The translations under genes and the position numbers were made by a program. Shown piece after piece: positions 12,532 through 64,000 of a stretch of 64,000 nucleotides of DNA (position 1 is its first letter; every line of letters begins with the position of its first letter). The stretch lies in the NCBI GenBank assembly GCA_039800105.1, contig JBDLRI010000025.1:2902-66901 (forward strand), read 5' to 3'. This DNA comes from Pseudomonadota bacterium. GTDB lineage: Bacteria; Myxococcota_A; UBA796; SXON01. Under the pieces are notes generated by a model. That model did not search any database, was not told the DNA's origin, and saw nothing but the letters and a program-made list of their open reading frames with translations.

Positions 12532-12576
12532 CTCCTACCGTGTGAAGGTAGTACTCTTCCGCTGAGTTAATCGCCC
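12502..12576 (-). tRNA. tRNA-Val (anticodon CAC)
   Basis: Minus-strand 75-nt cloverleaf folded by hand: acceptor GGGCGAT/ATCGCCC, D stem ACTC/GAGT, anticodon stem CTACC/GGTAG with loop TTCACAC, T stem ACTGG/CCAGT with loop TTCAAAT, and an encoded CCA. Confidence 0.9.
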
Positions 12577-12611
12577 CAGCCCCCGCACCCTAACAAGCAC
12601 CCCGTGCTCCG

Positions 12612-39011: not shown

Positions 39012-39021
39012 TCCCCTCTCC

Positions 39022-42264: not shown

Positions 42265-42269
42265 GGACG

Positions 42270-42707: not shown

Positions 42708-42711
42708 CGGT

Positions 42712-43944: not shown

Positions 43945-43947
43945 GCG

Positions 43948-45666
<1,719 letters not shown>

Positions 45667-45667
45667 G

Positions 45668-48295: not shown

Positions 48296-49317
48296 CGGAC
48301 CTCGTAGTCGAGCGTCTGCCGCTGGTTGCGGCGGGAGATCTCGAAGTTGAAGGCCTTCTCGTTGCGGAGGGACTGGTAGAGGGCGAGGGCCCCCTCGGTG
48401 CTCGTCATCGCCTGGCCGTTGATGGCGTGGACGACGTCGCCGTTCTTGATGCCGAGCTTGTCGAAGAGGCTGCCCTTCCGGATCGCCGAGAGGCGGAATC
48501 CGTCGACGTTGCCGCTGCCGTCCTTGTGGGGCACGGCGCGCAGCTGCCCGGCGAAGCTCTCGAGGTTGCCGAGGGCGCTGTCGAGCAGCGAGCGGTCGAC
48601 CTGGTACTTGTTCTCGCCGATCTTCTCGACGGTGCCGCCCTCGCCGGACGCGGACGCGACCGCGGCGCCGGGCGCAGGCGGTGCCTGCTCACCGATGCAC
48701 ACGCAGGTCCCGTCCTCCATGCACACCTTCTTCTGCTCGATGCGGGCGATCCGGCCGCCGCCGGGCACCTCGTCGCCGATCGCGAAGCCGTCGGCCTTCG
48801 CCTCCCGCGCGGCGCCCAGCGCCAGCAGCGCGGAGCTGAAACGCTCCGGGATGGCCACGATGGTGGCGAGGAGCCGCACGTTGGCGTCCGCGCGACAGGT
48901 CCACTCCCCGACGACCGTCACGCCGGGGCGGTACACCCCGGCGCTGTCGAAGATGCTTCGCCGCACGATCGGATCCACGTAGCTGGCGCGCGGCATGGCC
49001 ACGGGGCGCTGCGGCGCCTCGACGGCCGGCGCCTCCGCCGGCGGCTCGGCGGACCCCGGCTCTCCGGCCCGGGCGGGTGCCTCCGTGCCGGCGGCCGGCG
49101 CGGCAGCGGGCGCCGCGACGTCCTGGTACGTCGGCAGGGTCTCGCCGCCCGGCAGGGCGAGCATGCGACCCACCCCGCGCGCCGCGAGCGCGCCCGACCC
49201 CACCCCCGCCAGCGCGAGCGCGGCGCCGACGAGCAGCACGCGGCGCACGGGGACCGGCGCGGCCTGCACCTCCGGCAGGTCGGGCGGGGTTTCCGCGAGA
49301 GGAAGTTCGTCGTCCAT
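48292..49317 (-). CDS. gspC: Type II secretion system protein C (PDZ-containing)
   Basis: Distal part of ORF 48292..49380 (TTG). ATG 49317 is preferred but the start is uncertain. TM VLLVGAALALAGV. C-terminal PDZ-like GFRLSAIRKGSLFDKLGIKNGDVVHAINGQAM. Confidence 0.8.
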   Translation of the reverse strand: MDDELPLAETPPDLPEVQAAPVPVRRVLLVGAALALAGVGSGALAARGVGRMLALPGGETLPTYQDVAAPAAAPAAGTEAPARAGEPGSAEPPAEAPAVEAPQRPVAMPRASYVDPIVRRSIFDSAGVYRPGVTVVGEWTCRADANVRLLATIVAIPERFSSALLALGAAREAKADGFAIGDEVPGGGRIARIEQKKVCMEDGTCVCIGEQAPPAPGAAVASASGEGGTVEKIGENKYQVDRSLLDSALGNLESFAGQLRAVPHKDGSGNVDGFRLSAIRKGSLFDKLGIKNGDVVHAINGQAMTSTEGALALYQSLRNEKAFNFEISRRNQRQTLDYEVR

Positions 49318-49577
49318 CGGCCGGATGGGTAGCAAGAAGCGTGCCGCCGCGAAAGGCCTCCCGCGGGCGGGAATTGTCAACGTTTCCCGCGTGCGACGCG
49401 GACGGGTCCCGGACGCCGCGCGTCAGACTGGCAAACCGGCCGCGCCCTCCCGGCCGACCGGTGACAAAATGTCCAGCGCGGGACGTCCGCGGCACGGGTG
49501 ACACGCGCGCCTGCCCCGGCTACCTTCTGCCCGCCGGCCGGGCCACGGCCGGAGAGTCCGAACATCGGAGGCCGTCC

Positions 49578-51116
49578 GTGCGCACGCGTACCCTGACCGT
49601 CGTCTTCACGGACATGGCCGACTACACGCGCTCCGTGTCGGCCAGCGACCGCGAGGGGCTGCGCACGCTGCTGGCGATGCACGAGCAGCTCGTCGGGCCG
49701 GTGCTCACCCGGCGCGGCGGACGGGTGGTGAAGAACATCGGCGATTCCTTCATGGCCCTGTTCGAGAGCGCCACCGACGCGCTCCGCGCCTGCCTCGACC
49801 TCATGGAGGCGCACGCGCCGGCCAACGCGACCGGCATCGCGTTCCGGGCCGGCCTGGCCACCGGGGACGTCGAGGACACGGGCAACGACGCCTTCGGCGA
49901 GCCGGTCAACCTGGCGGCGCGCATCATCGGCAAGACCCCGACCGGAGAGGTCTGGTTCTCCAACGCCACCCGCCACTGCATGAACCAGGCGGAGATTCCC
50001 TACGAGAGCACCGGACGCCACGCCCTGAAGGGGATTCCCGGCGACATCGAGGTGTTCCGCGCGGTTCCCCGGCACGCCGCCTACCTGCCCGACGACCTCG
50101 TGGCCGCGATTCGCGCGCGCGCGGTGGTGCGCTGGGCCGCGGGCGACCCGGTGCCGCGCGTGCCGCAGGGCGCGCACGTCGTCCTGCACGGCTACCGCGC
50201 GGGCACGAGCGAGCTTGCGGGCGCCGTGGACCAGCTCCCGCAGGTCGAACCCGCGCGCCTGTGGCTCGCCACCTACGCGATCTCCCCGGCGGACCGCCAC
50301 GACTGGGCGCGCGGGGGACGCCAGCTTCTCGTGGCGACGGTCGAGGGCCTCGACGCGGCGTTCAAGGCCCACGAGCGCGCGCCGACGCGCACGCCGGGGT
50401 CGGACACCATCATCATGGATGGCGACTCGGACGCGGCCTTCGACCTGGTCGCCGGAGGCCTGGCGCTGCCCAGCGTCCCCCTCGCGGAGGTCGTCGCGGG
50501 GTACAGTTACGACCTGCTGTCCGATGGACGCTGGCTCAACCGTCACGAGCGCGCCGTGCTGCGCGTCGAGGTCGGCATGGAGGGCGCTTCCGCGCTCGTC
50601 CTCGGGCCGGGTGTGCAGGTGGGCGGGCAGGCCGCCGCCGTCGATACACGCGTGGCGCTCGTGGACGGCCTGCGGATCCGCACGCCGTCGGGTGCCATGA
50701 CCTACCGGGCGCTGAACACCGAGGGCTACCTCGGCGTGCTCCTGGGCGAAGGCGTCATGCGGCTCGGCGTCGCGGCGGGGCAGGCGGTGGAGATCGGGCG
50801 CGAGCCGCAGCAGCCGGGCTACCTCCTGCCCGACCGCTCCAACCAGGACAACATCGCGTGGCTTGCCGGGCCGCGCGCCGCGCGCGCCCGGGAGCGCGGC
50901 CTCACCGTGGACAAGGTCATGACCGGCCGCCGTCAGGCCAGCGTGGCGGACGCGGGCGGCACGCCGGTGGTCACGCCGCTGCACGAGACCTGCGCGACCG
51001 TCCTGCTCGGCGCCGACGGCGGCGCGACGCGCCTGGCGGCCTCGACGGACGCGCGCATCGGTGATTCGCTGCTGCTCGGCACCTCGGTGGTGGCCCTCCG
51101 CCCGCCGGTCGGCTGA
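49578..51116 (+). CDS. Class III adenylate/guanylate cyclase domain protein with a C-terminal FHA-like region
   Basis: Distal 512 codons of ORF 49077..51116. GTG 49578 lies 7 nt after GGAG. Cyclase core TVVFTDMADYT, VKNIGDSFMALF, GLATGDV, GEPVNLAARI. The C-terminal VEIGREP...MTGRRQASV...RIGDSLLLGTSVVAL is FHA-like. Confidence 0.8.
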   Translation: MRTRTLTVVFTDMADYTRSVSASDREGLRTLLAMHEQLVGPVLTRRGGRVVKNIGDSFMALFESATDALRACLDLMEAHAPANATGIAFRAGLATGDVEDTGNDAFGEPVNLAARIIGKTPTGEVWFSNATRHCMNQAEIPYESTGRHALKGIPGDIEVFRAVPRHAAYLPDDLVAAIRARAVVRWAAGDPVPRVPQGAHVVLHGYRAGTSELAGAVDQLPQVEPARLWLATYAISPADRHDWARGGRQLLVATVEGLDAAFKAHERAPTRTPGSDTIIMDGDSDAAFDLVAGGLALPSVPLAEVVAGYSYDLLSDGRWLNRHERAVLRVEVGMEGASALVLGPGVQVGGQAAAVDTRVALVDGLRIRTPSGAMTYRALNTEGYLGVLLGEGVMRLGVAAGQAVEIGREPQQPGYLLPDRSNQDNIAWLAGPRAARARERGLTVDKVMTGRRQASVADAGGTPVVTPLHETCATVLLGADGGATRLAASTDARIGDSLLLGTSVVALRPPVG

Positions 51117-52438
51117 TGGCCGGGCGTCGGCCGCCGCCGGGTCCCGACGCGCCGGGCGCGTGGCGACACGCCCGTCCGACGGGGGTCCAGGGGGCGGCGC
51201 CCCCTGGCGGGGCGTTGCGGGGCGGCGCCCCGCCCCAGGGAAAGCCAGCCTCCGCGCGGGACGACGGCAGGCTGCACGTGAACGCCTACAGCGAGGGGTG
51301 GCTGCGGAAGGGCTTTCCGTGGGTCTACCCCGCGGAGATCACGGCGGGCAGCGTGCGTCCGGGCCGTGCGACGCAGCTGGTGGCGCCCGGCGGCGAGGTG
51401 CTGGGCACGGCCATCGCCGACGACGGCTGGATCGCGGCGCGGCGCTTCCGCGACGATGCCGGCGACATCGACGGGGCGCTGCTGCGCGCGCGGGTGGAGG
51501 CGGCGCTCCGTCGTCGTGCGGGGCTGATCCCGCCCGACACCACCGCCTGGCGACTGGTGCATGCCGAGAACGACGACCTGCCCGGCATCCGCGTCGACGT
51601 GTGGGGCGCGCATGCGGTCGTGTCCCTCGACTCCCCCTCCCTCACGGGGCTGCTCGCGCCGCTTTGCGACGCCGTCGAGGCGGTGATCGGCCCGCGGGAG
51701 GGCATCCACCTGGCGCACCGGCCCGACCCGCGGGAGAAAGAGCGGCGGTCCTGGCCCCGCGAACCGGGCCTGCTGCGCGGGTCCGATCCCGGCGAGATCG
51801 AGGTCCTCGAGCGGGGCGTGCGGTTCCGGGTGCGCCCCGGCGATGGCCAGAAGGACGTCGGGCTCTACCCGGACATGCGCGACAACCGCGCGTGGCTGGA
51901 CCCCCACTGGCGGGGCCGCTCGCTCCTGAACCTGTTCGCGCACACCTGCGCCTTCAGCGTGTTCGCGGCGCGGGCCGGCGCCGCCTCCACCGTGTCGGTG
52001 GACCTGTCGGCGGCCTACCTCGAGCGCGGTGCCGCCAACTTCCGCCACAACGGCCTGCCCGTGCCGGAGCTGCTCGCGGAGGACTGCTTCCGCGCGCTGG
52101 ACCGCTTCCGCCGGCAGGGCCGGACCTTCGACGTGGTGCTGCTCGACCCGCCGGGACACAGCCACGGACCCGAGGGCACGTGGTCCGGGGAGCGCGACTA
52201 CGCCCGCCTCGTGCTCGGCGCGCTGCGGGTCCTGGCCCCGGGCGGGTGGCTCGTGGCGGCAAGCAACCTCGGCACCGTGAGCCCCCACCGCTTCCAGGGC
52301 ACGCTGCTCGACGGCGCCCGCCGCGCGGGACGCACGCTGCGCCTGCTGCACGACGGCGACGCCGCGCCCGACTTTCCCGCGGCGCTGGCGTTCCCCGAGG
52401 GCCGGTACCTGAAGTTCATGATTTGCGCGGTGGACTAG
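51116..52438 (+). CDS. Class I SAM-dependent rRNA methyltransferase (RlmI/RlmK-like)
   Basis: ORF 51116..52438. KGFPWVYPAEI (PUA-like start), WRLVHAENDDLPGIRVD, LNLFAHTCAFSVFAA, VVLLDPP, LVAASN. ATG 51116 shares one nt with the upstream stop. The alternative GTG 51278 would leave repeat 51187-51240 intergenic. Confidence 0.82.
   Translation: MAGRRPPPGPDAPGAWRHARPTGVQGAAPPGGALRGGAPPQGKPASARDDGRLHVNAYSEGWLRKGFPWVYPAEITAGSVRPGRATQLVAPGGEVLGTAIADDGWIAARRFRDDAGDIDGALLRARVEAALRRRAGLIPPDTTAWRLVHAENDDLPGIRVDVWGAHAVVSLDSPSLTGLLAPLCDAVEAVIGPREGIHLAHRPDPREKERRSWPREPGLLRGSDPGEIEVLERGVRFRVRPGDGQKDVGLYPDMRDNRAWLDPHWRGRSLLNLFAHTCAFSVFAARAGAASTVSVDLSAAYLERGAANFRHNGLPVPELLAEDCFRALDRFRRQGRTFDVVLLDPPGHSHGPEGTWSGERDYARLVLGALRVLAPGGWLVAASNLGTVSPHRFQGTLLDGARRAGRTLRLLHDGDAAPDFPAALAFPEGRYLKFMICAVD
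51187..51240 (+). repeat. Composite GC-hairpin repeat copy
   Basis: The near-palindrome ccagggggcggcgccccctgg is followed by cggggcgttgcggggcggcgccccgccccaggg. The block ggggcggcgcccc occurs twice. Confidence 0.75.
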
Positions 52439-52509: not shown

Positions 52510-53430
52510 GTGACGTGCCTGCGCGGACCCGCCGCCGGCCCGTGCGTCGCGATCACCGGAAACATCCACGGCGACGAGCTGACGGGCCTCGGCGCCGCGC
52601 ACGCGCTCGCCGGGAGGCTGGACGGGGCGCTGCGCGCCGGACGGGTGCGGCTGTACCCCTCGCTCAACCCCGACGGCCTGCGCCAGGGCACCCGGCGGGT
52701 GCCCGACGACGACCGTGACCTCAACCGATGCTTCCCGGGGGACCCCGCCGGCGGCCCCAGCGACCGACTGGCCCACGCGGCCTGGGAGGACCTCTCCCGC
52801 GAAGGCGTGGACCTGCTCGTGGACGTCCACGCCGATTCCTCCCACGCGCTGCCCTACGTCGTGCTGGACCGCGCGGTGCACCATGCCGGCGCGGCGCGCA
52901 CCGGGCTGGAGGCGCGTGCCGCCACGCTCGCCGCGACGACCGGGCTGACCGTGCTCCACGATCTCGCCGACGAGGCCTACGTGGCCGCGCGGCTCGACCG
53001 GACGCTGACGGGGTGCGTGCTCAACCGGCGCGGCGTCCCGGCCTTCACCCTCGAGGCGGGTCCGCGCGGGCGCCTCGACCCTTCCGCCGTCGAGGTGGTC
53101 GTGGATGCCCTCCTCGGCGTGCTCGGCGCGCTGGGCATGCTCGAGGCCCCGCCGGTTCCCCGCGACCACCCCACCCGCGTAGCGGGGGGGCCATGGCGCA
53201 GGGCGGTCGGCCCGCGCGCCCGCATGGACGGCGTCCTGGTCGCCACGGTCGCGCCCGGAGCGTGGACGGAGGCCGGCGCCGCCGTGGCCGAGATCCGGGC
53301 GCTCGATGGCCGCACGCGGGAGCACGTGCGCGCCGAGCGCGACGGTTTCGTCGTCAGCCATGCCCACCACGGCCACGTCGTCGCCGGGACGGCCGTGTGC
53401 ACGTGGGCGCATCCCGAGGCACCCGCATGA
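52510..53430 (+). CDS. Succinylglutamate desuccinylase/aspartoacylase-family zinc hydrolase
   Basis: Distal part of ORF 51061..53430. ITGNIHGDELTG, LNPDGLRQGTRRVPDDDRDLNRCFPG, LVDVHAD. Start GTG 52510 lies after the repeat; the alternative GTG 52441 would read through repeat copy 52462-52505. Confidence 0.8.
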   Translation: MTCLRGPAAGPCVAITGNIHGDELTGLGAAHALAGRLDGALRAGRVRLYPSLNPDGLRQGTRRVPDDDRDLNRCFPGDPAGGPSDRLAHAAWEDLSREGVDLLVDVHADSSHALPYVVLDRAVHHAGAARTGLEARAATLAATTGLTVLHDLADEAYVAARLDRTLTGCVLNRRGVPAFTLEAGPRGRLDPSAVEVVVDALLGVLGALGMLEAPPVPRDHPTRVAGGPWRRAVGPRARMDGVLVATVAPGAWTEAGAAVAEIRALDGRTREHVRAERDGFVVSHAHHGHVVAGTAVCTWAHPEAPA

Positions 53431-54773
53431 CGCACCCGCCGCCGGACCTGCTCGCCCGACAGCTGGCGTGGCTGGACACGCACGCCCCGGACGTCGCGGC
53501 GGCCGTGGTCCGGGCGCCCCCGCACGCGGAGGTGGTCGAGGTCGCGGGCGTGCCGCGCCGCACCCTTCGCATCGACGGCATCCAGCTGTGCGGGGCCGTC
53601 CGGCCCGACGACGAGGCCGCCCTGCAGGCACAGCGCATCCCTCCCGGCGCGCGCACCGCCACCGTCTACGGGGTCGCGCAGGGCGACCTTCCGCGCGTGC
53701 TGCTCCGCCGCCCCGAGCTGCAGCGGCTGGAGGTGGTCGTGCTCGAGCCGGGGGCGCTGCGGGAGGTGTTGACGCGCTTCGACCAGGCCGGCTGGATGCA
53801 GGATCCGCGCGTGCGGATCCGCGTCCCGACGGCCGACGAGCGGCCCCTCGCCCCGTGGGCGTTGGCGCCCGCCGCCCTGCGGCTCGCGAACCCCGCTGTG
53901 TGGACGCTGCGCGACCAACTCGTGCTCGCCCTCGGACTCGCCTACCAGCAGCGGGGGTTCGCGTACCTCGACGATCAGCTGCACGAGCGCCTCGTCGCGA
54001 ACGCGGAGCTCCTCGCGACGGACGGAGACGTGGCGGAGCTGTTCGGACGGGCCTCGGGACGCCGCGTGGTGGTGGCGGGGAGCGGCCCGACGCTCGCGGA
54101 CGAGGCCGCATGGCTGCGCGCCCACCGCGAGACGGTCACCCTCGTGGCGGTCAACAGCGCCCTCCGGCCCCTGCTGCTCGCGGACATCGTCCCCGACGTC
54201 GTGGTGGCGGTGGACGGGCACGAGAACCTCGTCCGGCACCTGGCGTGTCCCCCCGCGCTGGCACCGGAGGCGTGGGCGATCCTGCTTGCGCCGGTGCCGC
54301 TCGTCTACGCACCCGCCCTGCACCCCGACGCGCTGCGCGGCTGGCCCGGGCCGCGCTACGCCACGCTGCTGTCCTCGCGTCGCTACGACCCCCTGGAGGC
54401 GACACTGCCACGCGGACGGCTGTGGTGCGCGGGGACGGTCACCCAGACCGCCCTGGACCTCGCCGCGCGCATGGGTGCCACCGACATCGTGCTCGTCGGG
54501 GTCGACCTGGGGTATCCCGACGACCGCACGCACGCGGAGGGCGCGGTGGCCGCGGTGACCGTGCCGGCGCACGAGCGCCGCTACAGCATCGAGGACGGCC
54601 TCGGCGGCGCGATCCGCAGTGACGTGACGCTGATCGGCTACCTGCGCGACCTCGAGGACTGGATCGCCGACCGCCCGCACCTGCGCGTGCGCAAGCGCGG
54701 GCGCGCCGGCGCGCGGATGCGCGGGGCGCCCTGGCTCGATGACCGGGAGGACGGCGATGACGCCCGAGACTGA
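53427..54773 (+). CDS. DUF115 (MptE-like / motility-accessory-factor-like) domain protein
   Basis: Distal 448 codons of ORF 52728..54773. ATG 53427 overlaps the upstream stop (ATGA). Core RRVVVAGSGPTLADE, LVAVNSALRPLL, IVPDVVVAVDG, IVLVGVDLGYPD, as in DUF115 proteins. Confidence 0.7.
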   Translation: MTHPPPDLLARQLAWLDTHAPDVAAAVVRAPPHAEVVEVAGVPRRTLRIDGIQLCGAVRPDDEAALQAQRIPPGARTATVYGVAQGDLPRVLLRRPELQRLEVVVLEPGALREVLTRFDQAGWMQDPRVRIRVPTADERPLAPWALAPAALRLANPAVWTLRDQLVLALGLAYQQRGFAYLDDQLHERLVANAELLATDGDVAELFGRASGRRVVVAGSGPTLADEAAWLRAHRETVTLVAVNSALRPLLLADIVPDVVVAVDGHENLVRHLACPPALAPEAWAILLAPVPLVYAPALHPDALRGWPGPRYATLLSSRRYDPLEATLPRGRLWCAGTVTQTALDLAARMGATDIVLVGVDLGYPDDRTHAEGAVAAVTVPAHERRYSIEDGLGGAIRSDVTLIGYLRDLEDWIADRPHLRVRKRGRAGARMRGAPWLDDREDGDDARD

Positions 54774-55008
54774 GCTGGCCGCCGAGGCGGTGCAGGCCCT
54801 GCGGCGCGGCGAGGACGGTGCCGCGTGGGACGCCCTCGGCCGCTTCGCGGACGCGCTGGGGAGGCTCGCCGCCGCGGGCGACCCGCGCCTGCCGCCGCTG
54901 CTGCCGGTGCTGGAGGAGATCTTCGCGTGCCAACAGCGCGGCGACCTGCTTCGGATCGCCGACCTCCTCGCGTTCGTGGTCACGCCGGCGCTGCTGCGGC
55001 GCGACTGA
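54757..55008 (+). CDS. Small helical protein (83 aa), unknown function
   Basis: ORF 54739..55008. ATG 54757 follows GGGAGGACGGCG. Overlaps the DUF115 3' end by 17 nt. GC3-rich codons throughout. Confidence 0.55.
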   Translation: MTPETELAAEAVQALRRGEDGAAWDALGRFADALGRLAAAGDPRLPPLLPVLEEIFACQQRGDLLRIADLLAFVVTPALLRRD

Positions 55009-55032
55009 GCGCGCCCATGGTACGCTCGCGGG

Positions 55033-56538
55033 ATGCGAATCCTTCCTGCCCTGGCGGGCGCGGCGGCACTCGTCGCGGTGCCGGCGCACGCCACCGACAC
55101 GTGGACGAACGTACGGCCCGGCATCGACTACCTCTACCGTGAGCTGGGCCCGCCGAAACCGCAGCGGATCCACGCCGTGCGCGTCGACCTGTCGGACCCG
55201 CGGATCGGCATCCACGCCAGCGCGGACCTGCGCGGTCAGGAGTGGGCGGTCAACACCCTGGCCTTTGCGCGCAACACCGACGCCATCGTCGCCATCAACG
55301 GGGACTGGGCGTACATCGAGGGAACCGGCGACGCGTACCTGCGCCCCGCGAGCCTCGCGATCAGCGAGGGCAACCTGTGGAGCCCGCACTGGCCGTACGC
55401 CAACACCGTGGAGAGCTGGGGCTACGTCGCCTGCACGCTCGACAAGCAATGCACGCTCTCGTTCGCGCCGACGCTCGACAACCCGGGCATGGTCTTCCAT
55501 CCGCTCCAGAACCCGACCGTGTGGCCGCTCCGGTACTACAACGCAGTGGGTGCGAACGCGGTGCCGGCCCTGGTCCACGGCCAGCGCGTGGACGGGTGCT
55601 ACGACGGGCAGACGAACGCGCCCCGAAGCTCCGCGTGCACGGAGATCGACGGGACCCACCTGTGGCTCGTCGTCGTGGACGGACGCAACGCCGCCGGCGG
55701 GGAGTCCGGGATGAGCTGCGACGAGGTGCGCGATCAGCTGCTCACCCTCGGCTGCCACGAGGCGATGTTCCTGGACGGGGGCGGGAGCTCCACGCTGGTC
55801 GTGGACGACCAGGTCAAGAACACGCCGTCGGACGGTGGACTGCGCACGGTGGCCAACCACTTCGGCATCACGTGGGACGAGGTCGCCGACCCGCGGTGCC
55901 GGAAGGCCAACGGACGCTGGTGCGACGGCACCGTGATCGCAGCCTGCGCCGGAGGGCGCTACAAGGGGGACGGGGACTGCGGCTACTTCGGCGCGGGCTG
56001 CCAAGAGGACGGGGACTTCGCGTTCTGCGTGCACCCCTCGTGCCCGGACGGAAACGGCCTGCGACACAACGCGTGCCTCGACGCGACGCGCGTGGCGGGC
56101 TGCAACGACGGCCAGTACTCCGAGGGCGACTGCGGGGCCTTCGGGCTCGTCTGCGGCGGGGACCGCGGGAGCGCGCAGTGCATGGACCGCCGCTGCGCGG
56201 GGCCGAACGCCGCGCGCTGCGACGGCGCCACGCTCGTCGCGTGCACGGACGGCATCGCGACCCTGACCGACTGCGCCGCGCAGGGACTGGAATGCCGCGC
56301 GTCCGCGGCGGCGTGTGTCACGCCCGGGACGCCGGAGGACACGGCGACGTCGACCGGAACCTCCCTGGACGCGGGTGACGCGGGAACCGGGGACGACGCG
56401 TTCGACGGGACGCCCGCCGGCTTCACCGACCGCGGCTGCGCCTGCGACGCCGCCGGTGGCGTCCCGCTGCTCCCCGCGCTGCTCGCCGCGCTCGGCGCGC
56501 TGGATCGACGACGCCGGTCCGCCGACGCGGCGCGGTAG
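55033..56538 (+). CDS. Phosphodiester glycosidase (NAGPA/DUF2233-like) with Cys-rich modules and MYXO-CTERM tail
   Basis: ORF 55033..56538. Signal peptide MRILPALAGAAALVAVPAHA. AIVAINGDW, LWLVVVDGR, GMSCDEVRDQLLTLGCHEAMFLDGGGSSTLVV. About 150 aa of repeated Cys modules. Tail FTDRGCACDAAGGVPLLPALLAALGALDRRRR. Confidence 0.8.
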   Translation: MRILPALAGAAALVAVPAHATDTWTNVRPGIDYLYRELGPPKPQRIHAVRVDLSDPRIGIHASADLRGQEWAVNTLAFARNTDAIVAINGDWAYIEGTGDAYLRPASLAISEGNLWSPHWPYANTVESWGYVACTLDKQCTLSFAPTLDNPGMVFHPLQNPTVWPLRYYNAVGANAVPALVHGQRVDGCYDGQTNAPRSSACTEIDGTHLWLVVVDGRNAAGGESGMSCDEVRDQLLTLGCHEAMFLDGGGSSTLVVDDQVKNTPSDGGLRTVANHFGITWDEVADPRCRKANGRWCDGTVIAACAGGRYKGDGDCGYFGAGCQEDGDFAFCVHPSCPDGNGLRHNACLDATRVAGCNDGQYSEGDCGAFGLVCGGDRGSAQCMDRRCAGPNAARCDGATLVACTDGIATLTDCAAQGLECRASAAACVTPGTPEDTATSTGTSLDAGDAGTGDDAFDGTPAGFTDRGCACDAAGGVPLLPALLAALGALDRRRRSADAAR

Positions 56539-56553
56539 CCCACCAAGACCGGC

Positions 56554-56591
56554 GGGGGGCGTTGCGGGGGGCAGCCAGCCCCCCGCCCCAG
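56554..56591 (+). repeat. GC-hairpin repeat copy
   Basis: ggggggcgttgcggggggcagccagccccccgccccag, intergenic between the two NAGPA-like paralogs. Confidence 0.85.
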
Positions 56592-56618
56592 CCTTCCCGA
56601 CCGTGCTAGCATGCACGC

Positions 56619-58334
56619 ATGCGACCGCTCCTCGCCGCCGTTGCCACCCTGCTCGCGCTTGCCGCCCCCGCCCATGCCACCGACTACGAGCGGGTGGTCC
56701 GGCCGGGCATCACCTCGTTCAAGCGCCTGATCACCGGAAGCGAACCGCAGAACATCTACGCGGTGCGCGTGGACCTCACCGTCCCCAACATCGGACTGTA
56801 CGCCTCGGCCGACCGCCGCGGCGACGAGTGGGCCGTGGACACCCTCGACTTCGCCGAGGAGGTCGATGCCATCGCGGCGCTCAACGGCGACTGGTCGTGC
56901 ACGAGCTGCAGCGGCAACAACTACCTCAAGCCGCTGGGGCTCGCGATCAGCGACGGCGTCATGTGGCACAGCCACCGGCCGACCGATGACATCGGCACGC
57001 GTTGGGGGTACTTCGCCTGCACCATCGACAAGCGCTGCGACCTGACCCGCGCGCGCATGCTCGATGACCCGACGATGGCCACGAGCCCGCTCCGGACCCC
57101 CACGGTCTACCCGCTGCGCTACCACCAGGCGATCGGCGCCAACGGGCTGAACCTGCTCACCGACGGCGTGCGCGGGAACGGCTGCTTCGACACCTCCCAG
57201 TCCAACCCCCGCAGTGCCGCCTGCACCGACATCACGGGCACGATCCTGTGGCTCTTCGCCATCGACGGGCGCGGCGTCGGCGGCGGCACCGGCATGAGCT
57301 GCGCGGATGTCCGCAACCTTCTCCTCGACGCGCCCTTCAACTGCTGGGACGCGGTCATGCTCGACGGCGGCGGGTCCACGACCCTCGTCGTGGAGGACAC
57401 GAACACCAGCGCCTCCTGCAACCCGCGCGGCCGCAACAACCTGTGCGTGAAGAACCACCCGTCCGACGGCAGCCTCCGCAACGTGGGCAACCACATCGCC
57501 ATCACCTGGGAGGACACCATCGACGGGCGGTGTCGCCACGCCAACGGCATGTGGTGCAACAACGGCGCCCTCGAGACCTGCCAGGGCGGGCGGTTCAAGA
57601 CGTCCACCAACTGCGCGGCCGCCGGCAAGGGCTGCCAGGAGGACGGCACCTTCGCGTTCTGCGTCGACCCTCGCTGCCCCGCCGGCAACGGCCTGCGCGT
57701 CGGCGGCTGCCTCGACGCGACGCGCATCGCCAGCTGCAACGACGGCGTGTACGCCGAGGGCGACTGCGCCGGTTTCGGCCTCGTGTGCGGCGGCACCCCC
57801 GGCGCGGCGCAGTGCATGGACGCGCGCTGCGGCATTCCCGAGGGCGGCGCGTGCGTGGGCAGCGTGTGGACCCGCTGCAGCGCGGGCACCTACGTCGAGG
57901 CCGTGGATTGCGCGTCCTCCGGCCTGGTGTGCGACAACGGCGCGGGCTGCGTGACCCCGAACAGCGGCGGCGGCGGGTCGGGCACCGGCACCAGCGGCGG
58001 CGGCACCGGCACCGGCGGCACGAGCGGCGGCGGCACCGGCACCGGCGGCACGAGCGGCGGCACCGGCACCGGCGGCAACCACGGCGGCGGTGCCGGCAGC
58101 GGCGGGGATGACACCCACGCCACCGGGTTCGATGGTGGGTTCGGCGACTCCGGCCTCGAGGGCGCGCACGCATTCACCGATCGCGGCATTTCCTGCGGCT
58201 GCGCGTCGCACGCCGGCGGGACTCCGTCGGTACCGGCGTTGCTGGGACTGATCGTCCTCGCCGGTGCGCGGCGGCGTCCCGACGGCCAGACCCGTGACCG
58301 GGCGCGGCTGGCTCCCCGGACGATGCGCGCCTAG
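56619..58334 (+). CDS. Phosphodiester glycosidase (NAGPA/DUF2233-like) paralog with Cys-rich modules, Gly/Thr repeat and MYXO-CTERM tail
   Basis: ORF 56619..58334. Collinear with the previous gene (AIAALNGDW, LWLFAIDGR, GMSCADVRNLLLDAPFNCWDAVMLDGGGSTTLVV). Has a GGGTGTGGTSG repeat. Tail FTDRGISCGCASHAGGTPSVPALLGLIVLAGARRR. Confidence 0.8.
   Translation: MRPLLAAVATLLALAAPAHATDYERVVRPGITSFKRLITGSEPQNIYAVRVDLTVPNIGLYASADRRGDEWAVDTLDFAEEVDAIAALNGDWSCTSCSGNNYLKPLGLAISDGVMWHSHRPTDDIGTRWGYFACTIDKRCDLTRARMLDDPTMATSPLRTPTVYPLRYHQAIGANGLNLLTDGVRGNGCFDTSQSNPRSAACTDITGTILWLFAIDGRGVGGGTGMSCADVRNLLLDAPFNCWDAVMLDGGGSTTLVVEDTNTSASCNPRGRNNLCVKNHPSDGSLRNVGNHIAITWEDTIDGRCRHANGMWCNNGALETCQGGRFKTSTNCAAAGKGCQEDGTFAFCVDPRCPAGNGLRVGGCLDATRIASCNDGVYAEGDCAGFGLVCGGTPGAAQCMDARCGIPEGGACVGSVWTRCSAGTYVEAVDCASSGLVCDNGAGCVTPNSGGGGSGTGTSGGGTGTGGTSGGGTGTGGTSGGTGTGGNHGGGAGSGGDDTHATGFDGGFGDSGLEGAHAFTDRGISCGCASHAGGTPSVPALLGLIVLAGARRRPDGQTRDRARLAPRTMRA
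57965..58100 (+). repeat. Tandem ~30-bp coding repeat (Gly/Thr/Ser linker)
   Basis: The unit agcggcggcggcaccggcaccggcggcacg occurs at 57993-58022 and 58023-58052, followed by a shortened third unit. It encodes SGGGTGTGGT repeats in the second NAGPA-like protein. Confidence 0.8.
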
Positions 58335-58359: not shown

Positions 58360-59241
58360 ATGACCCTGTCCAACGGGCGCGTGTGCGCGCTCCCCCGCCC
58401 CGCACGCGTCGCGGCCTTGTTCCTCTGCCTGTGCGCCCCGGCGTTCGCGAAGCCCGGGGCCACGCCGTCCGTCGCGGCACCGGGAACCCCGACGCGCTCC
58501 GGAACCGTGCTCGTCACGGTGAACGGCCAGGCGGTGACCCAGGACATGCTGGACTCGGCCTTGGCCGCCATGCCCGCCGACGTGCGCGACCAGGTCGTGT
58601 CCCAGGGCCTGCAGGCGCGCCTGCGCGACCACATGGTGCTGCAGGAGCTGCTCTGGCAGGAGGCGGTCAAGCGCGGCCTCGCGACCGAGCCCGCGGTACA
58701 GGCCGCGCTCGTGATGGCGGCGCGCGATGTCCTCGCGAACGCGGTGCTCGAGGCCGAGACCGGGCGCCGGAGTGACCCGGCCGCGGTGAAGGCCTACTAC
58801 GACGCCCACCCCGAGCACTTCAAGCGCCCGCAGGTCCACGCGCGTCACATCCTCGTGCCCGACGAGCCCGGTGCGCGCGACGCGCTCGCGAAGGTCAAGG
58901 CCGGAGCCAGCTTCGCCGACGTCGCCCGCACGGTCAGCCGCGACCCCGGCAGCGCCGAGAACGGCGGCGACCTGGGCTGGTTCGAGCGCGGCACGATGGT
59001 CCCCGAGTTCGAGGCGGCCGCCTTCGGCGCCGCGACCGGCGCGCTCGTGGGGCCGGTCAAGTCCCAGTTCGGCTGGCACGTCCTCGAGATCCTCGGCACG
59101 CGCGACACGGTTCCCCTCGAGGAGGTCCGCGAGGGCATCGAGGAGAAGCTCCGCGACGAAGCCCGCACGAGCTGGATCGAGGAGCTGCGCTCCCGGGCGA
59201 CCATCGTCCCCGGCGGACCCGGCGCGTCGTCGACCCCCTAG
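58360..59241 (+). CDS. Peptidylprolyl isomerase (parvulin/PpiC type, SurA/PrsA-like)
   Basis: Distal 293 codons of ORF 58264..59241, ATG 58360. Signal peptide ...AALFLCLCAPAFA. Parvulin core ARHILV, NGGDLGWFERGTMVPEFEAAAF, GPVKSQFGWHVLEI. Confidence 0.88.
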   Translation: MTLSNGRVCALPRPARVAALFLCLCAPAFAKPGATPSVAAPGTPTRSGTVLVTVNGQAVTQDMLDSALAAMPADVRDQVVSQGLQARLRDHMVLQELLWQEAVKRGLATEPAVQAALVMAARDVLANAVLEAETGRRSDPAAVKAYYDAHPEHFKRPQVHARHILVPDEPGARDALAKVKAGASFADVARTVSRDPGSAENGGDLGWFERGTMVPEFEAAAFGAATGALVGPVKSQFGWHVLEILGTRDTVPLEEVREGIEEKLRDEARTSWIEELRSRATIVPGGPGASSTP

Positions 59242-59294: not shown

Positions 59295-60017
59295 TCACGG
59301 GAACGGGGCGACCTCCGCGACGATGACCCAGTCCTCGCCCCACACCTGCGGCCCGATCTCCAGCGCACGGGCGCGGACGTCCTCGATGGAGGCCTCCATC
59401 GCCGCCGCCAGCGCCGGGTCTCGAAACCACTTCAACTTGGCCCGCGCCACGTCCAGCTGCCCGTTCACGAAGCGCGCGCCGATTCGGTTGGGGAACCGCG
59501 CGACGTCGCACACGCGGTACCCGGCCTGCGCAAGCCAGGTCTCGATCGTCGACGCCGGATACTCGCGGTACGTCCGGTGCCCGGCCAGGAGGATGCAGGC
59601 GTCCCGCATGCGGCAGACCTCGTCGAGCACGCTGCCGTCGCGCGGCTGCGGCTCCAGCCCCACGAGGTAGACCCGTCCGCCACAGTGCGGACGCAGCCGC
59701 CGGAGGAAGTCGTACTGGAAATACGGCGCGTGCCCGTCGATCGCCCCGATGACATAGTCCACCAGCACCTGGTCGAACACCTCGCCGTAGAGCAGCGCCG
59801 GGTCGGTCCATTGACCGATCACGAGCCGCGCATCCACACCGAGGGCGCGCAGACCCTCGATCCGCCACGTCTCCACCGTCACGGCCGTCCGGGACGCGGC
59901 CGGGAGCGTGCCCAGCCACGACAGGCTGTGGTCGCCGGTGCCGGCGTCCAGCACGCTGCCCCAGGCCGGGCCATTGGCGCGCTCGATGTACGTGAAGAGC
60001 GCGTCCTCGCGCCTCAA
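59295..60017 (-). CDS. Class I SAM-dependent methyltransferase
   Basis: Distal part of ORF 59295..60065. Motif I-like VLDAGTGDHS. Start uncertain: TTG 60017 overlaps the tyrS stop. Confidence 0.6.
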   Translation of the reverse strand: MRREDALFTYIERANGPAWGSVLDAGTGDHSLSWLGTLPAASRTAVTVETWRIEGLRALGVDARLVIGQWTDPALLYGEVFDQVLVDYVIGAIDGHAPYFQYDFLRRLRPHCGGRVYLVGLEPQPRDGSVLDEVCRMRDACILLAGHRTYREYPASTIETWLAQAGYRVCDVARFPNRIGARFVNGQLDVARAKLKWFRDPALAAAMEASIEDVRARALEIGPQVWGEDWVIVAEVAPFP

Positions 60018-61183
60018 GGGAGGCACAGGCGCACCGCCTTCTTCTTGCCCACCCGCACCAGGCACGGCGCGGGCACCTCCATGCCGGGGTCGGTCACCCG
60101 CGCCCCGTCGACGCTCACCCCGCCCTGCGCGACCAGCCGACGGCCCTCACCGCGGCTCGCGGTCAGCCCTGCCGCGACCAGGATGTCGAGCAGCGGCGCG
60201 GGCAGCACGTGGGCAAGCTCGGGGGTGTCCTCGGTGCTGCTCCCCGCCGCCGCCGCACGGGCCGCGGCGTCCGCGGCCTCGGCGGCCTCGCGTCCGTGCA
60301 CGATCGCCGTGGCCTCCCGCGCCAGCACGCGCTTCGCCTCGCGGATGTCCCCGGCGACGAGGGCCGCGATCTCGTCGGGCGTCAGGAACGTGAAGAGCTT
60401 CAGGAAGCGCTCCACGTCACGGTCGTCGCAATTGTACCAGAACTGGCGGTAGTCAAACGGCGAGGTGCGCGCGGCGGACAGCCACACCGCGCCCGCGGCG
60501 GTCTTCCCCATCTTCGCGCCGGACGCCGTCGTCAGGAGCGGCAGCGTGAGGCCGTAGGTCTCCGCCCCCTCCAGCCGCCGGACGAGGTCGATGCCGCTCA
60601 CGATGTTGAACCACTGGTCCTGGCCGCCCACCTGCAGGATGCAGCCGTAGCGCCGGTGCAGCTCCACGAAGTCGTAGCTCTGCAGCAGGGCGTAGTTGAA
60701 CTCAAGGAACGACAGGCCGTGGTTGCGCTCCAGCCGCAGCTTCACGCTCTCGGCCGTCAACATCCGGTTCACGCTGAAATGCCGGCCGATGTCGCGCAGG
60801 AACGCGATGTAGCCGAGTCCCAGCAACCATTCGGCGTTGTCGACGAGCCGTCCGTCGCAGAATCGCGCGATCTGGGCGCGGATGGCGGCCTTGTTGGCGT
60901 CGATGCGCGCCGTGTCGAGCAGATCGCGGCTCTCGTCGCGCCCGGAGGGGTCCCCGACCATCGCCGTGCCGCCGCCCACCACGGCGATGGGGTCATGACC
61001 CGCCCGCGCCAGGTGCGTCATGAGCATGAGCGGCAAGAGGTGGCCCACGTGCAGGCTGTCCGCCGTGGGGTCGAAGCCGCAGTAGAACGTGACGGGTCCG
61101 GCGTCCATGCGGGCGCGCAGGGCGGCCTCGTCGGTCAGCTGGTGCAGGAATCCACGGGCCCGGAGCTGGTCGATGACGTGCAT
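60014..61183 (-). CDS. tyrS: Tyrosine--tRNA ligase
   Basis: Distal 389 codons of ORF 60014..61444, ATG 61183 (MHVIDQL). HIGH-type motif DSLHVGHLLP, KMSKS-type KMGKT, GGQDQW, and a C-terminal S4-like domain (SRGEGRRLVAQGGVSVDG). Confidence 0.93.
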   Translation of the reverse strand: MHVIDQLRARGFLHQLTDEAALRARMDAGPVTFYCGFDPTADSLHVGHLLPLMLMTHLARAGHDPIAVVGGGTAMVGDPSGRDESRDLLDTARIDANKAAIRAQIARFCDGRLVDNAEWLLGLGYIAFLRDIGRHFSVNRMLTAESVKLRLERNHGLSFLEFNYALLQSYDFVELHRRYGCILQVGGQDQWFNIVSGIDLVRRLEGAETYGLTLPLLTTASGAKMGKTAAGAVWLSAARTSPFDYRQFWYNCDDRDVERFLKLFTFLTPDEIAALVAGDIREAKRVLAREATAIVHGREAAEAADAAARAAAAGSSTEDTPELAHVLPAPLLDILVAAGLTASRGEGRRLVAQGGVSVDGARVTDPGMEVPAPCLVRVGKKKAVRLCLP

Positions 61184-61193
61184 GGGGCGCGGG

Positions 61194-64000
61194 CTATCCG
61201 CGCCGTCGCCGCCGCGCGAGCAGCCCGAGCGGCAGCAGCATCCACGCGGAGGCCTCCTCGCCGTCGCGACCGCAGCAGCCGCCGGCTCCCTCGACGTCCG
61301 CCGGACCGGCCTGGCGCGCCAGCGGGGTGCTCGCGTTGCCCGTGTTCTGCGGGTCATGGTGGACACCGGCCCAGCCGATGTCCTGATCCGCCCGCCCCCG
61401 GGTGCGCCACGCGAAGAGCCGGCCCTCGCGGGTGCTGATGACAACCTCGACGTAGCCGTCCCCGTCGATGTCGCCGGTGGCCGGGCTGCCGAGGATCCAG
61501 TTGCCGGTGAACTTCGGCCAGCCCTCGGCCTCGTTGCCGCGCGCGTCCCAGGCGTGCAGCAGGTAGCCTGCGCTCCCCATGATCGCCTCGGCCCGGCCGT
61601 CGCCCGTCACGTCGGCGACGCCCGGGGCCACCAGGAACTGGAGATCCTCCACCTGGCGGGGCCAGCCGGGCAGCATCTGGCCGGTGGCACCGTCCCAGGC
61701 GGCGACCACGTTGTGCCACTCGAGCGCGGTCGGAAGCGCGAGCGCCACCAGGTAGTACGTGCCCGCGCCGCCGATCACGTAGTCCGGCACGCCGTCCCCG
61801 GTGAGATCGCCGAAGGACGGGTTGTTCGTCATCTGCACGAAGCTCGGCTCGGTGGCGTTCGACTCCGGGCCGTAGGCGCCCATGACGTAGGAGAGGTCCC
61901 GCGCCACGGTCGCATCGTGGTGGTAGAGCGGCGAGCGGCCGAGCATCACAGGGCTCGCGATCTCGAGATCCCCGTCCCGGTCGAGGTCGGCGAAGGCGAG
62001 GGAGCCCGGATGCCCGTCTCCCACGATCGGCAGCAGGCCGGCCTCGTTGATGAGCCCACCCTCGCGCAGGGGCCATCCGGGCTCCAGCGTGCCCGACACC
62101 GCGTCCAGAAGGTAGGAGATGCTCTCCCGCCCGCCGGAGACGGTCTCGTTGGTGCCGAGCCCGATCTCCACGGCGCCGTCGCCATCCACGTCCCCGACGG
62201 TCGGCGAGTTGATGATGCGCGCTCCCTCCACACCGCAGATCGACGGGTCGCACAGCTCCACGGGGTACGGCCCCCACGGCTGGCCCGCCGCATCCCAGGC
62301 GTACAGCCGCTGGTCGAGCCCCGCGGCCAGCACCTCCAGGCTTCCGTCCCCATCGAGATCATAGAGGGTCGGCGCCCCGTAGATTCCGTTGTCCCACCCG
62401 TTCTCGGACCCGACCCGCTCCGGCGGGCGCCCCAGGATCGCGACCGGAAAGCCGTCGACCGGACTCCCGTCGGCGTGCCAGGCGTAGACGCGGCCCTCCA
62501 CGCCGGCCGCTACCACCTCGGGGACGCCGTCACCCTCGAGGTCCCCGACCGCCGCCGTGGCGAGGACCGCCTCGTGCAGCTCGGACACGCCGGGCAGCGC
62601 GAGCTGCGGGCGCCACAGCCGCGACAGGGCGGTGCGCACGGGGAACCCGGCGGCCTCGCGACCCTGCGCGTCGAACGCGTGGACCCACCCCGTCGCGTCG
62701 GCGATCACGATCTCGAAGATGCCGTCATCGTCGAGATCGGCGAGCACCGGGCTGCTCTCGGCGGACCCGGGGAGCGTCAGCGGGAAGGCCTCGAGCAGGT
62801 CCGGATCGTGCCGCACGAAGAAGGTCTTGCGGAAGCTGGCCGCCGTACCGTCGGAATCGGTGGCCCGCACGCGCACGGTCACGGCTCCGCCCATCACGCG
62901 GGTCACGCGCTGCACCAGCGTCTCGTAGGCGGGCGCGTCCCCCGGCGCGCGGGTGTCGAGCGTGGAGAGATCGAGCTGCGCGAAGGTGCCCGCGAAATCC
63001 GCCGTCACCGTTCCGCGCGTGAGCTCGCGCCAGCTCGTCGGCGTGGCACCTACGCCGACGTCCACGACGTAGTCGACGGACTGGGCGCGCGGCATGCGGA
63101 TCGTACCGACGATGTCCACGGGACCGCGCGCCGGGTCGCGCGTCTCCAGCCACGCCGGCGAGGTCAGATCCAGCATCGGCGGAATGCGACCCGCGGCGAC
63201 GGCGTCCACGGCCCTGCCGATGTCCAGGCGGCCGTAGCCGTAGAACGTGTCCCAGCCCTCCGCGGAGGGGTAGGTGTTCGCGGTGGCCACGTCCTCCGGC
63301 GGCAGCGCGATGTCGGTCGCCGTCGTGACGAGCAGCTGGTAGACCTCGTCGGATTCCAGCGTGATCCCGCGCGCCCGCGCCGCCGACTTCACAAGTCCGA
63401 CCGCGCCGGTCGTGATCGCCGTCGCGCCGGTGGCGCACGCGGGACTGTCGGCGACGACGTCCAGGCGCGGCCCGTAGTTGTTGCAGTTGAAGAAGTTGAA
63501 GTAGCTGTAGGCGCCGGTGTTCTCGTCGGAGCTGTCGGCACGGATGCTGTGTACGAACAGCACCCCGTCGTGCAGGGCCGGGAAGTTCGCGTGGTAGGCG
63601 TTCTCGTCCCCCGCGGCCCCCGCGATGGAGATGCCGTTCGCGCGGGCCCAGGCGGCCGCCTCCGTCATCGTCGCGGGGTTCGTGAGCGCGCCGACGGAGA
63701 GGTTGAACGCCGCGGCACCGCGCTCCGCCGCGTAGAGGAGGGCCATCGCCGCGCGGCTCCCGTCCGTGACGAAGGTGTCGCCGATGCGGATGGGCAGCAC
63801 CGCGCAGTTGGGACACACGCCGATGGCACCGTCGTCGCCCCCTTCGGCGGCCATGTCCTCCACGACACCGCTGCCGTGGTCGCCGAAGTCCCCCTCGAAC
63901 GACGCGTAGGGATCGTTGTCATCCGAGAAGAAGTCCCAGCCGGCGATGTCGTCGACGAGACCGTTCCCGTCGTCGTCCACACCGTCGCTGAAGGCCGCCA
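61194..64000 (-). CDS. Large S8 serine protease with FG-GAP/VCBS-like repeats and MYXO-CTERM tail (N-terminus outside the window)
   Basis: ORF 61194..63980, with the frame open to the window edge. DDDGNGLVDDIAGWDF, DHGSGV. Repeated D-x-D-x-DG calcium-type FG-GAP units (DLDDDGIFEIV, DLEGDGVPEVV, DLDGDGSLEVL, DVDGDGAVEI, DIDGDGYVEVV). Tail GAGGCCGRDGEEASAWMLLPLGLLARRRRRG. Confidence 0.85.
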   Translation of the reverse strand, partial: AAFSDGVDDDGNGLVDDIAGWDFFSDDNDPYASFEGDFGDHGSGVVEDMAAEGGDDGAIGVCPNCAVLPIRIGDTFVTDGSRAAMALLYAAERGAAAFNLSVGALTNPATMTEAAAWARANGISIAGAAGDENAYHANFPALHDGVLFVHSIRADSSDENTGAYSYFNFFNCNNYGPRLDVVADSPACATGATAITTGAVGLVKSAARARGITLESDEVYQLLVTTATDIALPPEDVATANTYPSAEGWDTFYGYGRLDIGRAVDAVAAGRIPPMLDLTSPAWLETRDPARGPVDIVGTIRMPRAQSVDYVVDVGVGATPTSWRELTRGTVTADFAGTFAQLDLSTLDTRAPGDAPAYETLVQRVTRVMGGAVTVRVRATDSDGTAASFRKTFFVRHDPDLLEAFPLTLPGSAESSPVLADLDDDGIFEIVIADATGWVHAFDAQGREAAGFPVRTALSRLWRPQLALPGVSELHEAVLATAAVGDLEGDGVPEVVAAGVEGRVYAWHADGSPVDGFPVAILGRPPERVGSENGWDNGIYGAPTLYDLDGDGSLEVLAAGLDQRLYAWDAAGQPWGPYPVELCDPSICGVEGARIINSPTVGDVDGDGAVEIGLGTNETVSGGRESISYLLDAVSGTLEPGWPLREGGLINEAGLLPIVGDGHPGSLAFADLDRDGDLEIASPVMLGRSPLYHHDATVARDLSYVMGAYGPESNATEPSFVQMTNNPSFGDLTGDGVPDYVIGGAGTYYLVALALPTALEWHNVVAAWDGATGQMLPGWPRQVEDLQFLVAPGVADVTGDGRAEAIMGSAGYLLHAWDARGNEAEGWPKFTGNWILGSPATGDIDGDGYVEVVISTREGRLFAWRTRGRADQDIGWAGVHHDPQNTGNASTPLARQAGPADVEGAGGCCGRDGEEASAWMLLPLGLLARRRRRG

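Follow-up and report, generated by a model that had tools for sequence, protein, structure and literature searches.

A candidate Maf-2/GlfM-type gene pair away from flagellar genes, between an AstE/AspA-family deacylase gene and two NAGPA-like genes of a high-GC bacterial contig

A stretch of 64,000 nucleotides from a bacterial metagenome assembly (GCA_039800105.1, contig JBDLRI010000025.1, positions 2,902 to 66,901; hereafter the window) carries, in the same orientation, genes for an AstE/AspA-family deacylase, a DUF115 protein of 448 amino acids (aa), a hypothetical protein of 83 aa and two paralogous NAGPA-like proteins with MYXO-CTERM-like tails. An earlier note on the window had joined these five genes into one surface-glycan pathway. 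The block is probably better described as three juxtaposed units, namely the deacylase, the DUF115/83-aa pair and the NAGPA paralogues. The conserved unit is the DUF115 gene together with the 83-aa gene, which are predicted to be a pair of the Maf-2/GlfM type, a kind described in 2023; this allows the hypothetical protein to be annotated as GlfM-like and the DUF115 protein next to it as Maf-2-like. What the analysis shows directly is homology, gene pairing, fold predictions, residue conservation and neighbourhood statistics; donor, acceptor, enzyme activities and co-transcription are inferred.

The only Pfam match of the 448-aa protein is PF01973 (MptE-like/DUF115, Maf_flag10; 1e-29, 103.9 bits versus a cut-off of 34.6), and the protein has neither tetratricopeptide repeats (TPR) nor an acceptor-binding extension. 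The DUF115 family profile matches the Maf structure 5MU5 at 1.5e-12. The same structure is the top Foldseek match (E 1e-16, 515 columns) of the AlphaFold2 model of the window protein, which has a predicted local distance difference test score (pLDDT) of 94.9. Two acidic residues of 5MU5 that are reported to be critical for Maf activity are retained, as D263 aligns to E324 in a column that is D or E in all 58 sequences of the alignment, and D360 aligns to D415 in an invariant column; the mapping of D263 and D360 onto D261 and D347, the residues mutated in SoMaf-2, is by residue numbering only. A protein search returned 105 homologues of about 430 aa, one of which, from Aeromonas, is named 'motility associated factor glycosyltransferase family protein'. 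The suggestion of Maf kinship made earlier therefore holds, and the protein is Maf-like and not MptE-like. It is exceedingly improbable that it is a 6-hydroxymethylpterin diphosphokinase (HPPK) of the MptE type or another small-molecule enzyme. The name of the Pfam family would allow this, and an archaeal MptE/HPPK (8SD5) ranks second among the structural matches (E 9e-7), but that match spans only about 200 residues, and the length of the protein, its N-terminal domain, its obligatory GlfM-like partner and the flagellin and nonulosonic acid (NulO) neighbourhoods of its homologues all fit Maf-2.

The 83-aa protein matches no Pfam or NCBIfam family, even at E <= 10, and faint precomputed 'DUF8042' labels were not reproduced in the local Pfam copy. 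Its AlphaFold2 model (pLDDT 95.1) consists of four helices, comprising residues 3-16, 20-39, 46-61 and 64-80. A Foldseek search of the PDB with this model yielded no significant match; FliS, in fifth place at E 3.5, is not evidence of a relationship. Asp69, located in predicted helix 4, is the sole invariant column in an alignment of 41 sequences (A4), and in alignment A5 of the small proteins Asp69 and Gln59 are both invariant. The published GlfM of Shewanella oneidensis (SO_3260) is likewise a small protein (89 aa) with a predicted four-helix bundle; it is encoded adjacent to maf-2, binds Maf-2, enables this TPR-less Maf to glycosylate flagellin, and depends on D77 in its last helix (10.1101/2023.12.03.569772). 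At the 50% identity level the GlfM-like family comprises 967 representatives. The Pfam and NCBIfam copies searched have no model for it, and its profile also recovered small-protein homologues labelled Aeromonas, Colwellia and Shewanella.

The pairing of the two genes is found far beyond the window. A scan of metagenomes yielded 80 further DUF115 loci (a separate profile search of genome contigs, alignment A2, gave 2 true loci only, neither of them from the organism of the window), and a hidden Markov model of the small proteins placed a homologue at 83 distinct loci. At 79 of these 83, the small gene directly follows the DUF115 gene on the same strand, which agrees with the proposal that the 83-aa protein is a partner of the DUF115 protein. 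The commonest overlap of the two genes is 4 nt, and a gene of about 80-100 aa that meets the DUF115 gene at its 3' end or overlaps it there is the one constant of the neighbourhoods inspected, which are otherwise diverse: the pair is found at the side of a trp operon, with aromatic catabolism genes, in a flagellar cluster with a second Maf of 839 aa, and beside NeuB in a flagellar glycosylation island of Aeromonas. Exceptions occur in a low-GC clade, where the GlfM-like gene is upstream of the DUF115 gene (L058 8227-8460, L060 9726-9959, L065 1619-1852; L numbers denote individual loci of the survey), and in locus L037, where it is on the opposite strand. One protein of the representative library, P0421 (778 aa), is a fusion of DUF115 (203-363), TPR (~484-672) and a C-terminal GlfM-like domain (694-775), and thus, at the level of sequence, it is a Rosetta-stone link between the DUF115 and GlfM-like families; in P0435 the GlfM-like domain is fused to an FkbM-type methyltransferase.

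The closest described parallel is Maf-2/GlfM of S. oneidensis MR-1 (SO_3259/SO_3260; Unay, Kint & Viollier), a tripartite system for the O-sialylation of flagellin, of which Kurthia, Pseudomonas sp. 3E13 and Geobacillus (GK_3129/GK_3130) also have orthologues. The window pair shares with it the combination of a TPR-less Maf and a cis-encoded small soluble protein with a predicted four-helix bundle, the conserved Asp of the last helix, the two acidic residues of the Maf, and homologues in flagellin and pseudaminic/legionaminic acid islands. It differs in its location, which is not a flagellar or NulO locus but the space between a zinc deacylase and secreted NAGPA-like proteins, in the Leu and Ala residues at the F24 and E80 positions of GlfM, and in a Gln where 95% of Maf-2-like homologues have His. 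The Maf of Magnetospirillum magneticum AMB-1 (5MU5) and the Maf-1 types (Aeromonas caviae Maf1 and S. oneidensis Maf-1) share the central DUF115/GT-A-like and N-terminal domains with the window protein, and equivalents of E324 and D415 of 5MU5 are retained; however, the Maf-1 types comprise 650-830 aa, have a C-terminal acceptor-binding domain of their own and need no GlfM, whereas the window protein is shorter, with its partner encoded separately.

By homology, the 448-aa protein would be a cytoplasmic Maf-family glycosyltransferase. Characterised Maf enzymes transfer a nonulosonic acid from a cytidine monophosphate (CMP) donor in O-linkage to Ser/Thr (10.1101/2020.06.03.131540; 10.1101/2023.12.03.569772), and the window protein would similarly O-link a CMP-activated nonulosonic acid of the pseudaminic or legionaminic type to Ser/Thr residues of an acceptor protein. 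The 83-aa protein would bind this enzyme through helix 4, with Asp69, and would form a bridge to the acceptor. The acceptor in most relatives would be flagellin; here, the genes for the acceptor and for the sugar donor would be located outside the 64-kb window.

The five-gene block, on the other hand, is not conserved. The order AstE-DUF115-83aa-NAGPA is kept in P0001, L008 and L009, of which one is a 99% identical contig and the others have DUF115 proteins of 82% and 77% identity. Among these syntenic relatives the synonymous divergence (dS) is 0.43-0.70, and the flanking rRNA methyltransferase is 96% identical; therefore, a shared gene order is expected by descent and is uninformative. In relatives at 46-53% identity neither AstE nor NAGPA is a neighbour, and the small partner gene is retained. 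Neither tblastn nor phmmer found AstE or NAGPA in any of the 39 distinct DUF115 loci with flanks of 8 kb or more, the set used for all context counts, and no DUF115 or AstE neighbours were found around NAGPA homologues on three other long contigs. The linkage claimed for the block is thus confined to relatives at 77-99% identity, and the same is true of DUF115-NAGPA synteny, the absence of which from other genomes the earlier note itself had named as speaking against its proposal.

The pathway that had been proposed would comprise all five genes: the DUF115 protein would equip a surface polymer or protein with a phosphodiester-linked sugar, which the deacylase would tailor and the anchored NAGPA enzymes would trim. 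Tight gene junctions and the order kept in the three relatives were in its favour. Yet relatives at 77-99% identity with dS of about 0.5-0.7 carry no information on function, and the linkage is missing from both the 39 larger DUF115 loci and the three NAGPA loci. In addition, Maf enzymes O-link nonulosonic acids to Ser/Thr, and no phosphodiester product has been described for the characterised members (10.1101/2020.06.03.131540; 10.1101/2023.12.03.569772), so that a NAGPA-type enzyme would find nothing to uncover. The tight junctions are also not specific to the five genes, because the same run joins a cyclase, an rRNA methyltransferase and a prolyl isomerase, the first two as tightly as the genes of the proposed pathway, and a strong hairpin parts the two NAGPA genes. 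In a compact high-GC genome, tight junctions are poor evidence for a shared pathway. The idea of building and then trimming a phosphodiester is therefore unsupported, and a common pathway of the five genes is improbable.

Several observations weigh against the explanation that we favour, a Maf-2/GlfM-type pair juxtaposed with two other units. The likeness to SO_3259/SO_3260 was established via the published description, not by direct alignment. At the positions of F24, R25 and E80 of GlfM the window protein has L15-R16 and A72 (in IADLLAF), so that Arg alone is retained, and Leu and Ala replace two of the four residues that were called strictly conserved in the published GlfM. At residue 340 of the DUF115 protein, in a motif that reads GT/SV-x-H-x-A-x-DLA in Maf-2-like homologues, the window protein and its two closest relatives, and only these three, have Gln, while 55 of the 58 homologues have His. 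The usual flagellar or NulO setting is absent from the 64-kb window, whereas 33 of the 39 homologous loci have such a context, counting flagellar, NulO or second-Maf genes. With regard to the block, the sample of NAGPA contexts is small (three loci), and the ATGA overlap of the AstE and Maf-2-like genes and the 24-nt gap in front of the first NAGPA gene fit co-transcription; therefore, a lineage-specific functional link is possible.

The residue changes and the lost context could also mean that the pair is a decaying relic that was left behind after flagella had been lost. This is very improbable. Both genes are intact and keep the catalytic Asp residues and the Asp that is essential in GlfM, and the ratio of nonsynonymous to synonymous substitution rates (dN/dS) is 0.16-0.34 across three lineages, which indicates purifying selection on the pair and by which the genes are judged to be functional. 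The changes themselves do not amount to decay, since the columns of F24, R25 and E80 are variable also across the 41 small proteins, and substitutions of all three residues are tolerated in GlfM and do not abolish its function (10.1101/2023.12.03.569772). The reading of His340Gln as an inactivating change was rejected, because the active 5MU5 Maf has Asn at the equivalent position and dN/dS is 0.16-0.27.

The missing context of the Maf-2/GlfM-type pair raises the question of its acceptor. A tblastn search of the window with flagellin, FlgK, FliD, FliS, FliW, NeuB and CMP-NulO synthetase found none of them, so that the earlier observation that the window lacks flagellar genes is borne out. In the 39 loci with long flanks, flagellar genes are present in 19, NeuB or CMP-NulO genes in 25, and a second large Maf in 19; at least one of these was found in the 33 loci mentioned above. 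In a neighbour-joining tree the window trio, comprising the window protein and its two closest relatives, groups with L001, L010, L012, L013, L016, L017 and L063, and none of these loci has flagellar genes in the available flank, which extends up to +-10 kb (1-20 kb total). In L013, a locus rich in Ser/Thr kinase genes, the order Maf-2-GlfM-NeuB-SDR-cytidylyltransferase is found at 9902-15118. The high-GC Maf-2/GlfM pairs of L050, L054, L055, L057 and L083 adjoin NeuB as well, and in these five loci and L013 no flagellar genes are present in the available flank, which reaches up to +-10 kb in L013 and L083. These six loci may represent non-flagellar systems of protein glycosylation with nonulosonic acids. 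Several high-GC clades, that of the window included, have the pair at sites apart from flagellar genes; in one of these clades NeuB and a cytidylyltransferase are retained.

It is therefore conceivable, although we regard it as unlikely, that the pair has been retargeted in a non-flagellated Myxococcota lineage, where it would glycosylate a protein other than flagellin, possibly a secreted or exported surface protein such as the neighbouring paralogues with linkers rich in Ser, Thr and Gly, and where the newly recruited, translationally coupled AstE-like deacylase would tailor the sugar or the acceptor. The window and the wider clade (L001, L010, L012, L013 and L016) are in line with this, as is the NulO cassette of L013. 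The MYXO-CTERM-type proteins point to Myxococcota as the origin of the metagenome-assembled genome, and cultured Myxococcota are not known to carry flagella. The clade-specific His340Gln change, the F-to-L and E-to-A changes of the GlfM-like protein, the purifying selection on the pair, and a linker of about 60 aa rich in Ser, Thr and Gly in NAGPA paralogue 2 would also be compatible with a new acceptor. Nevertheless, flagellar and NulO genes could be located elsewhere in the genome, and some uncultured Myxococcota assemblies may encode flagellins, which is ambiguous; the literature on nonulosonic acids or flagella in Myxococcota contained nothing decisive. Furthermore, the pair is separate from flagellar genes in Planctomycete and other relatives as well, nothing ties it to a specific acceptor, and the AstE link is confined to close relatives. 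If retargeting were true, this would be the first Maf/GlfM system that acts outside flagella. More generally, if any organism with such a pair truly lacks flagella, Maf/GlfM systems would have acceptors beyond flagellin, and the known range of bacterial protein sialylation would be widened.

Returning to the Maf-2/GlfM-type pair and its neighbours as separate units, the gene upstream of the pair encodes a protein with the catalytic domain and motifs of the AstE/AspA deacylases (succinylglutamate desuccinylase, aspartoacylase and DoeB). It matches the PDB structures 3CDX (2.9e-22) and DoeB 6TWM (5e-13), with the HGDE, DxNRCFPGD and DVH motifs aligned; in the alignment to 3CDX its zinc-site and substrate-site motifs read HGDE, DLNRCFPGD and DVH. 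The NCBIfam equivalogs are far from reached (DoeB 58.4 versus 402.7 bits, aspartoacylase 17.4 versus 180), and because the protein stays below every equivalog cut-off it fits no characterised activity. In contrast to the known deacylases of this family, it has no arginine-, aspartate- or ectoine-catabolic genes beside it. Of all the loci, P0001 and L009 alone have AstE beside DUF115. The protein would be a cytoplasmic zinc amidohydrolase. Its gene probably shares a transcript with the pair, but the linkage is limited to this genus-level lineage.

The two NAGPA-like proteins are 53% identical to each other and score 92.7 (paralogue 1) and 68.8 bits (paralogue 2) with PF09992, compared to a cut-off of 25. 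Both begin with a signal peptide of the AHA|TD type and contain DGGGS, at residue 248 in paralogue 1 and 249 in paralogue 2, aligned to PDB 3OHG; this invariant loop holds the catalytic Asp of NAGPA (PMC13474241). Each has 18 Cys residues, arranged as three 6-Cys modules across about 140 aa, and both C-termini consist of FTDRG-x-C-x-C, a hydrophobic helix and an RRR(R) tail. With the NCBIfam MYXO-CTERM model TIGR03901, paralogue 2 scores 19.2 versus a cut-off of 20 and paralogue 1 gives no match at E <= 0.01; the Joint Genome Institute label on paralogue 1 is the TIGR03382 family. As no model match reaches its cut-off, the assignment of a sorting tail rests on inspection together with this label. 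Of the features described in the earlier note, the NAGPA domain, the Cys modules and the tripartite form of the tail can be seen in both proteins.

The PF09992 domain and DGGGS are common to the window paralogues, the NAGPA 'uncovering enzyme' and the bacterial DUF2233 proteins (3OHG; Das et al. 2013). Human NAGPA also combines a catalytic core, a Cys-rich stalk and a C-terminal anchor, the anchor in the window proteins being of the tripartite MYXO-CTERM form. The window proteins differ from characterised NAGPA members in that identity is very low and Pfam does not recognise the Cys modules as epidermal growth factor (EGF) domains, and no member of the bacterial sub-family has been characterised. 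The MYXO-CTERM signal is processed by the myxosortase MrtX and exported through the type II secretion system (T2SS; PMC11980579); a myxosortase gene was not seen in the window, in which no search aimed at one was made. The Cys signature, transmembrane helix and Arg-rich tail of such proteins are present at both window C-termini, although neither reaches the NCBIfam cut-off. More than 100 homologue clusters were found for paralogue 1, with proteins of about 500 aa that are mostly unnamed; where a name is given, in a few cases, the label is Myxococcota, Deltaproteobacteria or Pseudomonadota bacterium. Proteins that combine NAGPA, Cys-rich modules and MYXO-CTERM are thus a large family, seen mostly in metagenome assemblies of the Myxococcota type. 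The two paralogues would be exported enzymes, probably tethered to the surface, and their putative activity, unconnected with the Maf pair, would be the release of the sugar moiety from a sugar-1-phosphodiester of an extracellular glycan. In two other loci with NAGPA homologues (L091 3944-5425 and L092 6285-7964) the homologue is directly preceded by a gene of about 490-560 aa without a Pfam match.

A complete T2SS operon is also present in the window, at 35495-49380 on the minus strand, about 6 kb upstream of the first NAGPA gene, a short way past the start of the run and divergent from it. It comprises genes for a GspC-like PDZ protein, the GspD secretin, GspE, GspF, GspG, the minor pseudopilins H to K and a PilM/GspL-like protein, and it bears on the NAGPA paralogues because this system is the presumed route of MYXO-CTERM proteins to the surface.

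The coordinates of all features of the run are collected in Table 1. As the window has about 75% G+C, raw lists of open reading frames (ORFs) are noisy, and the five ORFs were picked out by the G+C content of third codon positions (GC3) and a sliding frame plot; all five have a coding signature by both, with GC3 of 0.92-0.94. The Pfam matches of DUF115, AstE_AspA and NAGPA, whose confirmation by profile search had been proposed, all exceed the gathering thresholds. The coordinates given in the earlier note match the sequence, as do the three junctions it described. The AstE and DUF115 genes overlap in ATGA at 53427-53430, read from the sequence; the 83-aa gene starts with ATG at 54757, preceded closely by the Shine-Dalgarno-like GGGAGGA, and the DUF115 gene ends with TGA at 54771-54773, which results in an overlap of 17 nt; and 24 nt (55009-55032) separate the 83-aa gene from the first NAGPA gene. 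Orientation and coding status of the five genes were also confirmed, but the co-oriented run is in fact eight genes long and includes, in addition, a cyclase gene, an RlmI-like rRNA methyltransferase gene and a PpiC isomerase gene.

Table 1. Features of the eight-gene run; positions are those of the window
Feature	Position	Strand	Remarks
Adenylate/guanylate cyclase-domain protein	49596-51116	+	~350-aa C-terminal region without Pfam match
RlmI-like 23S rRNA m5C methyltransferase	51116..52438	+	Methyltrans_SAM 5e-26 and PUA domain
AstE/AspA-family zinc deacylase, 306 aa, no signal peptide	52510..53430	+	PF24827 (AstE_AspA_cat) 6e-26
Maf-2-type DUF115 protein, 448 aa, candidate CMP-nonulosonic-acid:protein O-glycosyltransferase	53427..54773	+	PF01973
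GlfM-like adaptor, 83 aa, predicted four-helix bundle	54757..55008	+	17-nt overlap, translationally coupled to Maf-2-like gene
NAGPA-family paralogue 1, 501 aa: signal peptide, catalytic domain, three 6-Cys modules, MYXO-CTERM-like tail	55033..56538	+	PF09992 3.8e-26
Strong G+C hairpin between the NAGPA genes (80-nt gap)	56551..56602	+	folding of 56536-56620
NAGPA-family paralogue 2, 571 aa: same layout plus ~60-aa Gly/Ser/Thr-rich linker before the tail	56619..58334	+	PF09992 8.7e-19
Secreted PpiC/SurA-like prolyl isomerase	58360..59241	+	Rotamase_3 2.9e-23, SurA_N_3 1.9e-4

The stop codon of the cyclase gene overlaps the listed start of the RlmI-like gene in TGATG at 51114-51118. The RlmI-like protein belongs to the NCBIfam family of 23S C1962 methyltransferases (1.8e-52), and its gene is also upstream of AstE in locus L009, at 96% identity and a dN/dS of 0.06. 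At the other end of the run, the isomerase gene begins 25 nt past the second NAGPA gene. A scan for sigma-70 promoters and intrinsic terminators was uninformative in window DNA with 75% GC. The region between the two NAGPA genes has a minimum free energy of -45.6 kcal/mol (z = -2.5), and only 1 of 200 shuffled sequences was equally stable; its hairpin has no T-tract and was not called by a consensus terminator scan. It is possible that it marks a transcript boundary or acts as an mRNA stabiliser.

Two further genes downstream of the run are on the minus strand. For an ORF of 256 aa at 59295-60065, the coding signature is strong (GC3 0.90) and neither Pfam nor NCBIfam gives a match; the listed tyrosyl-tRNA synthetase ORF overlaps it with its 3' end. 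A protein of 928 aa, encoded at 61194-63980, combines a subtilase S8 domain with FG-GAP repeats and is probably secreted.

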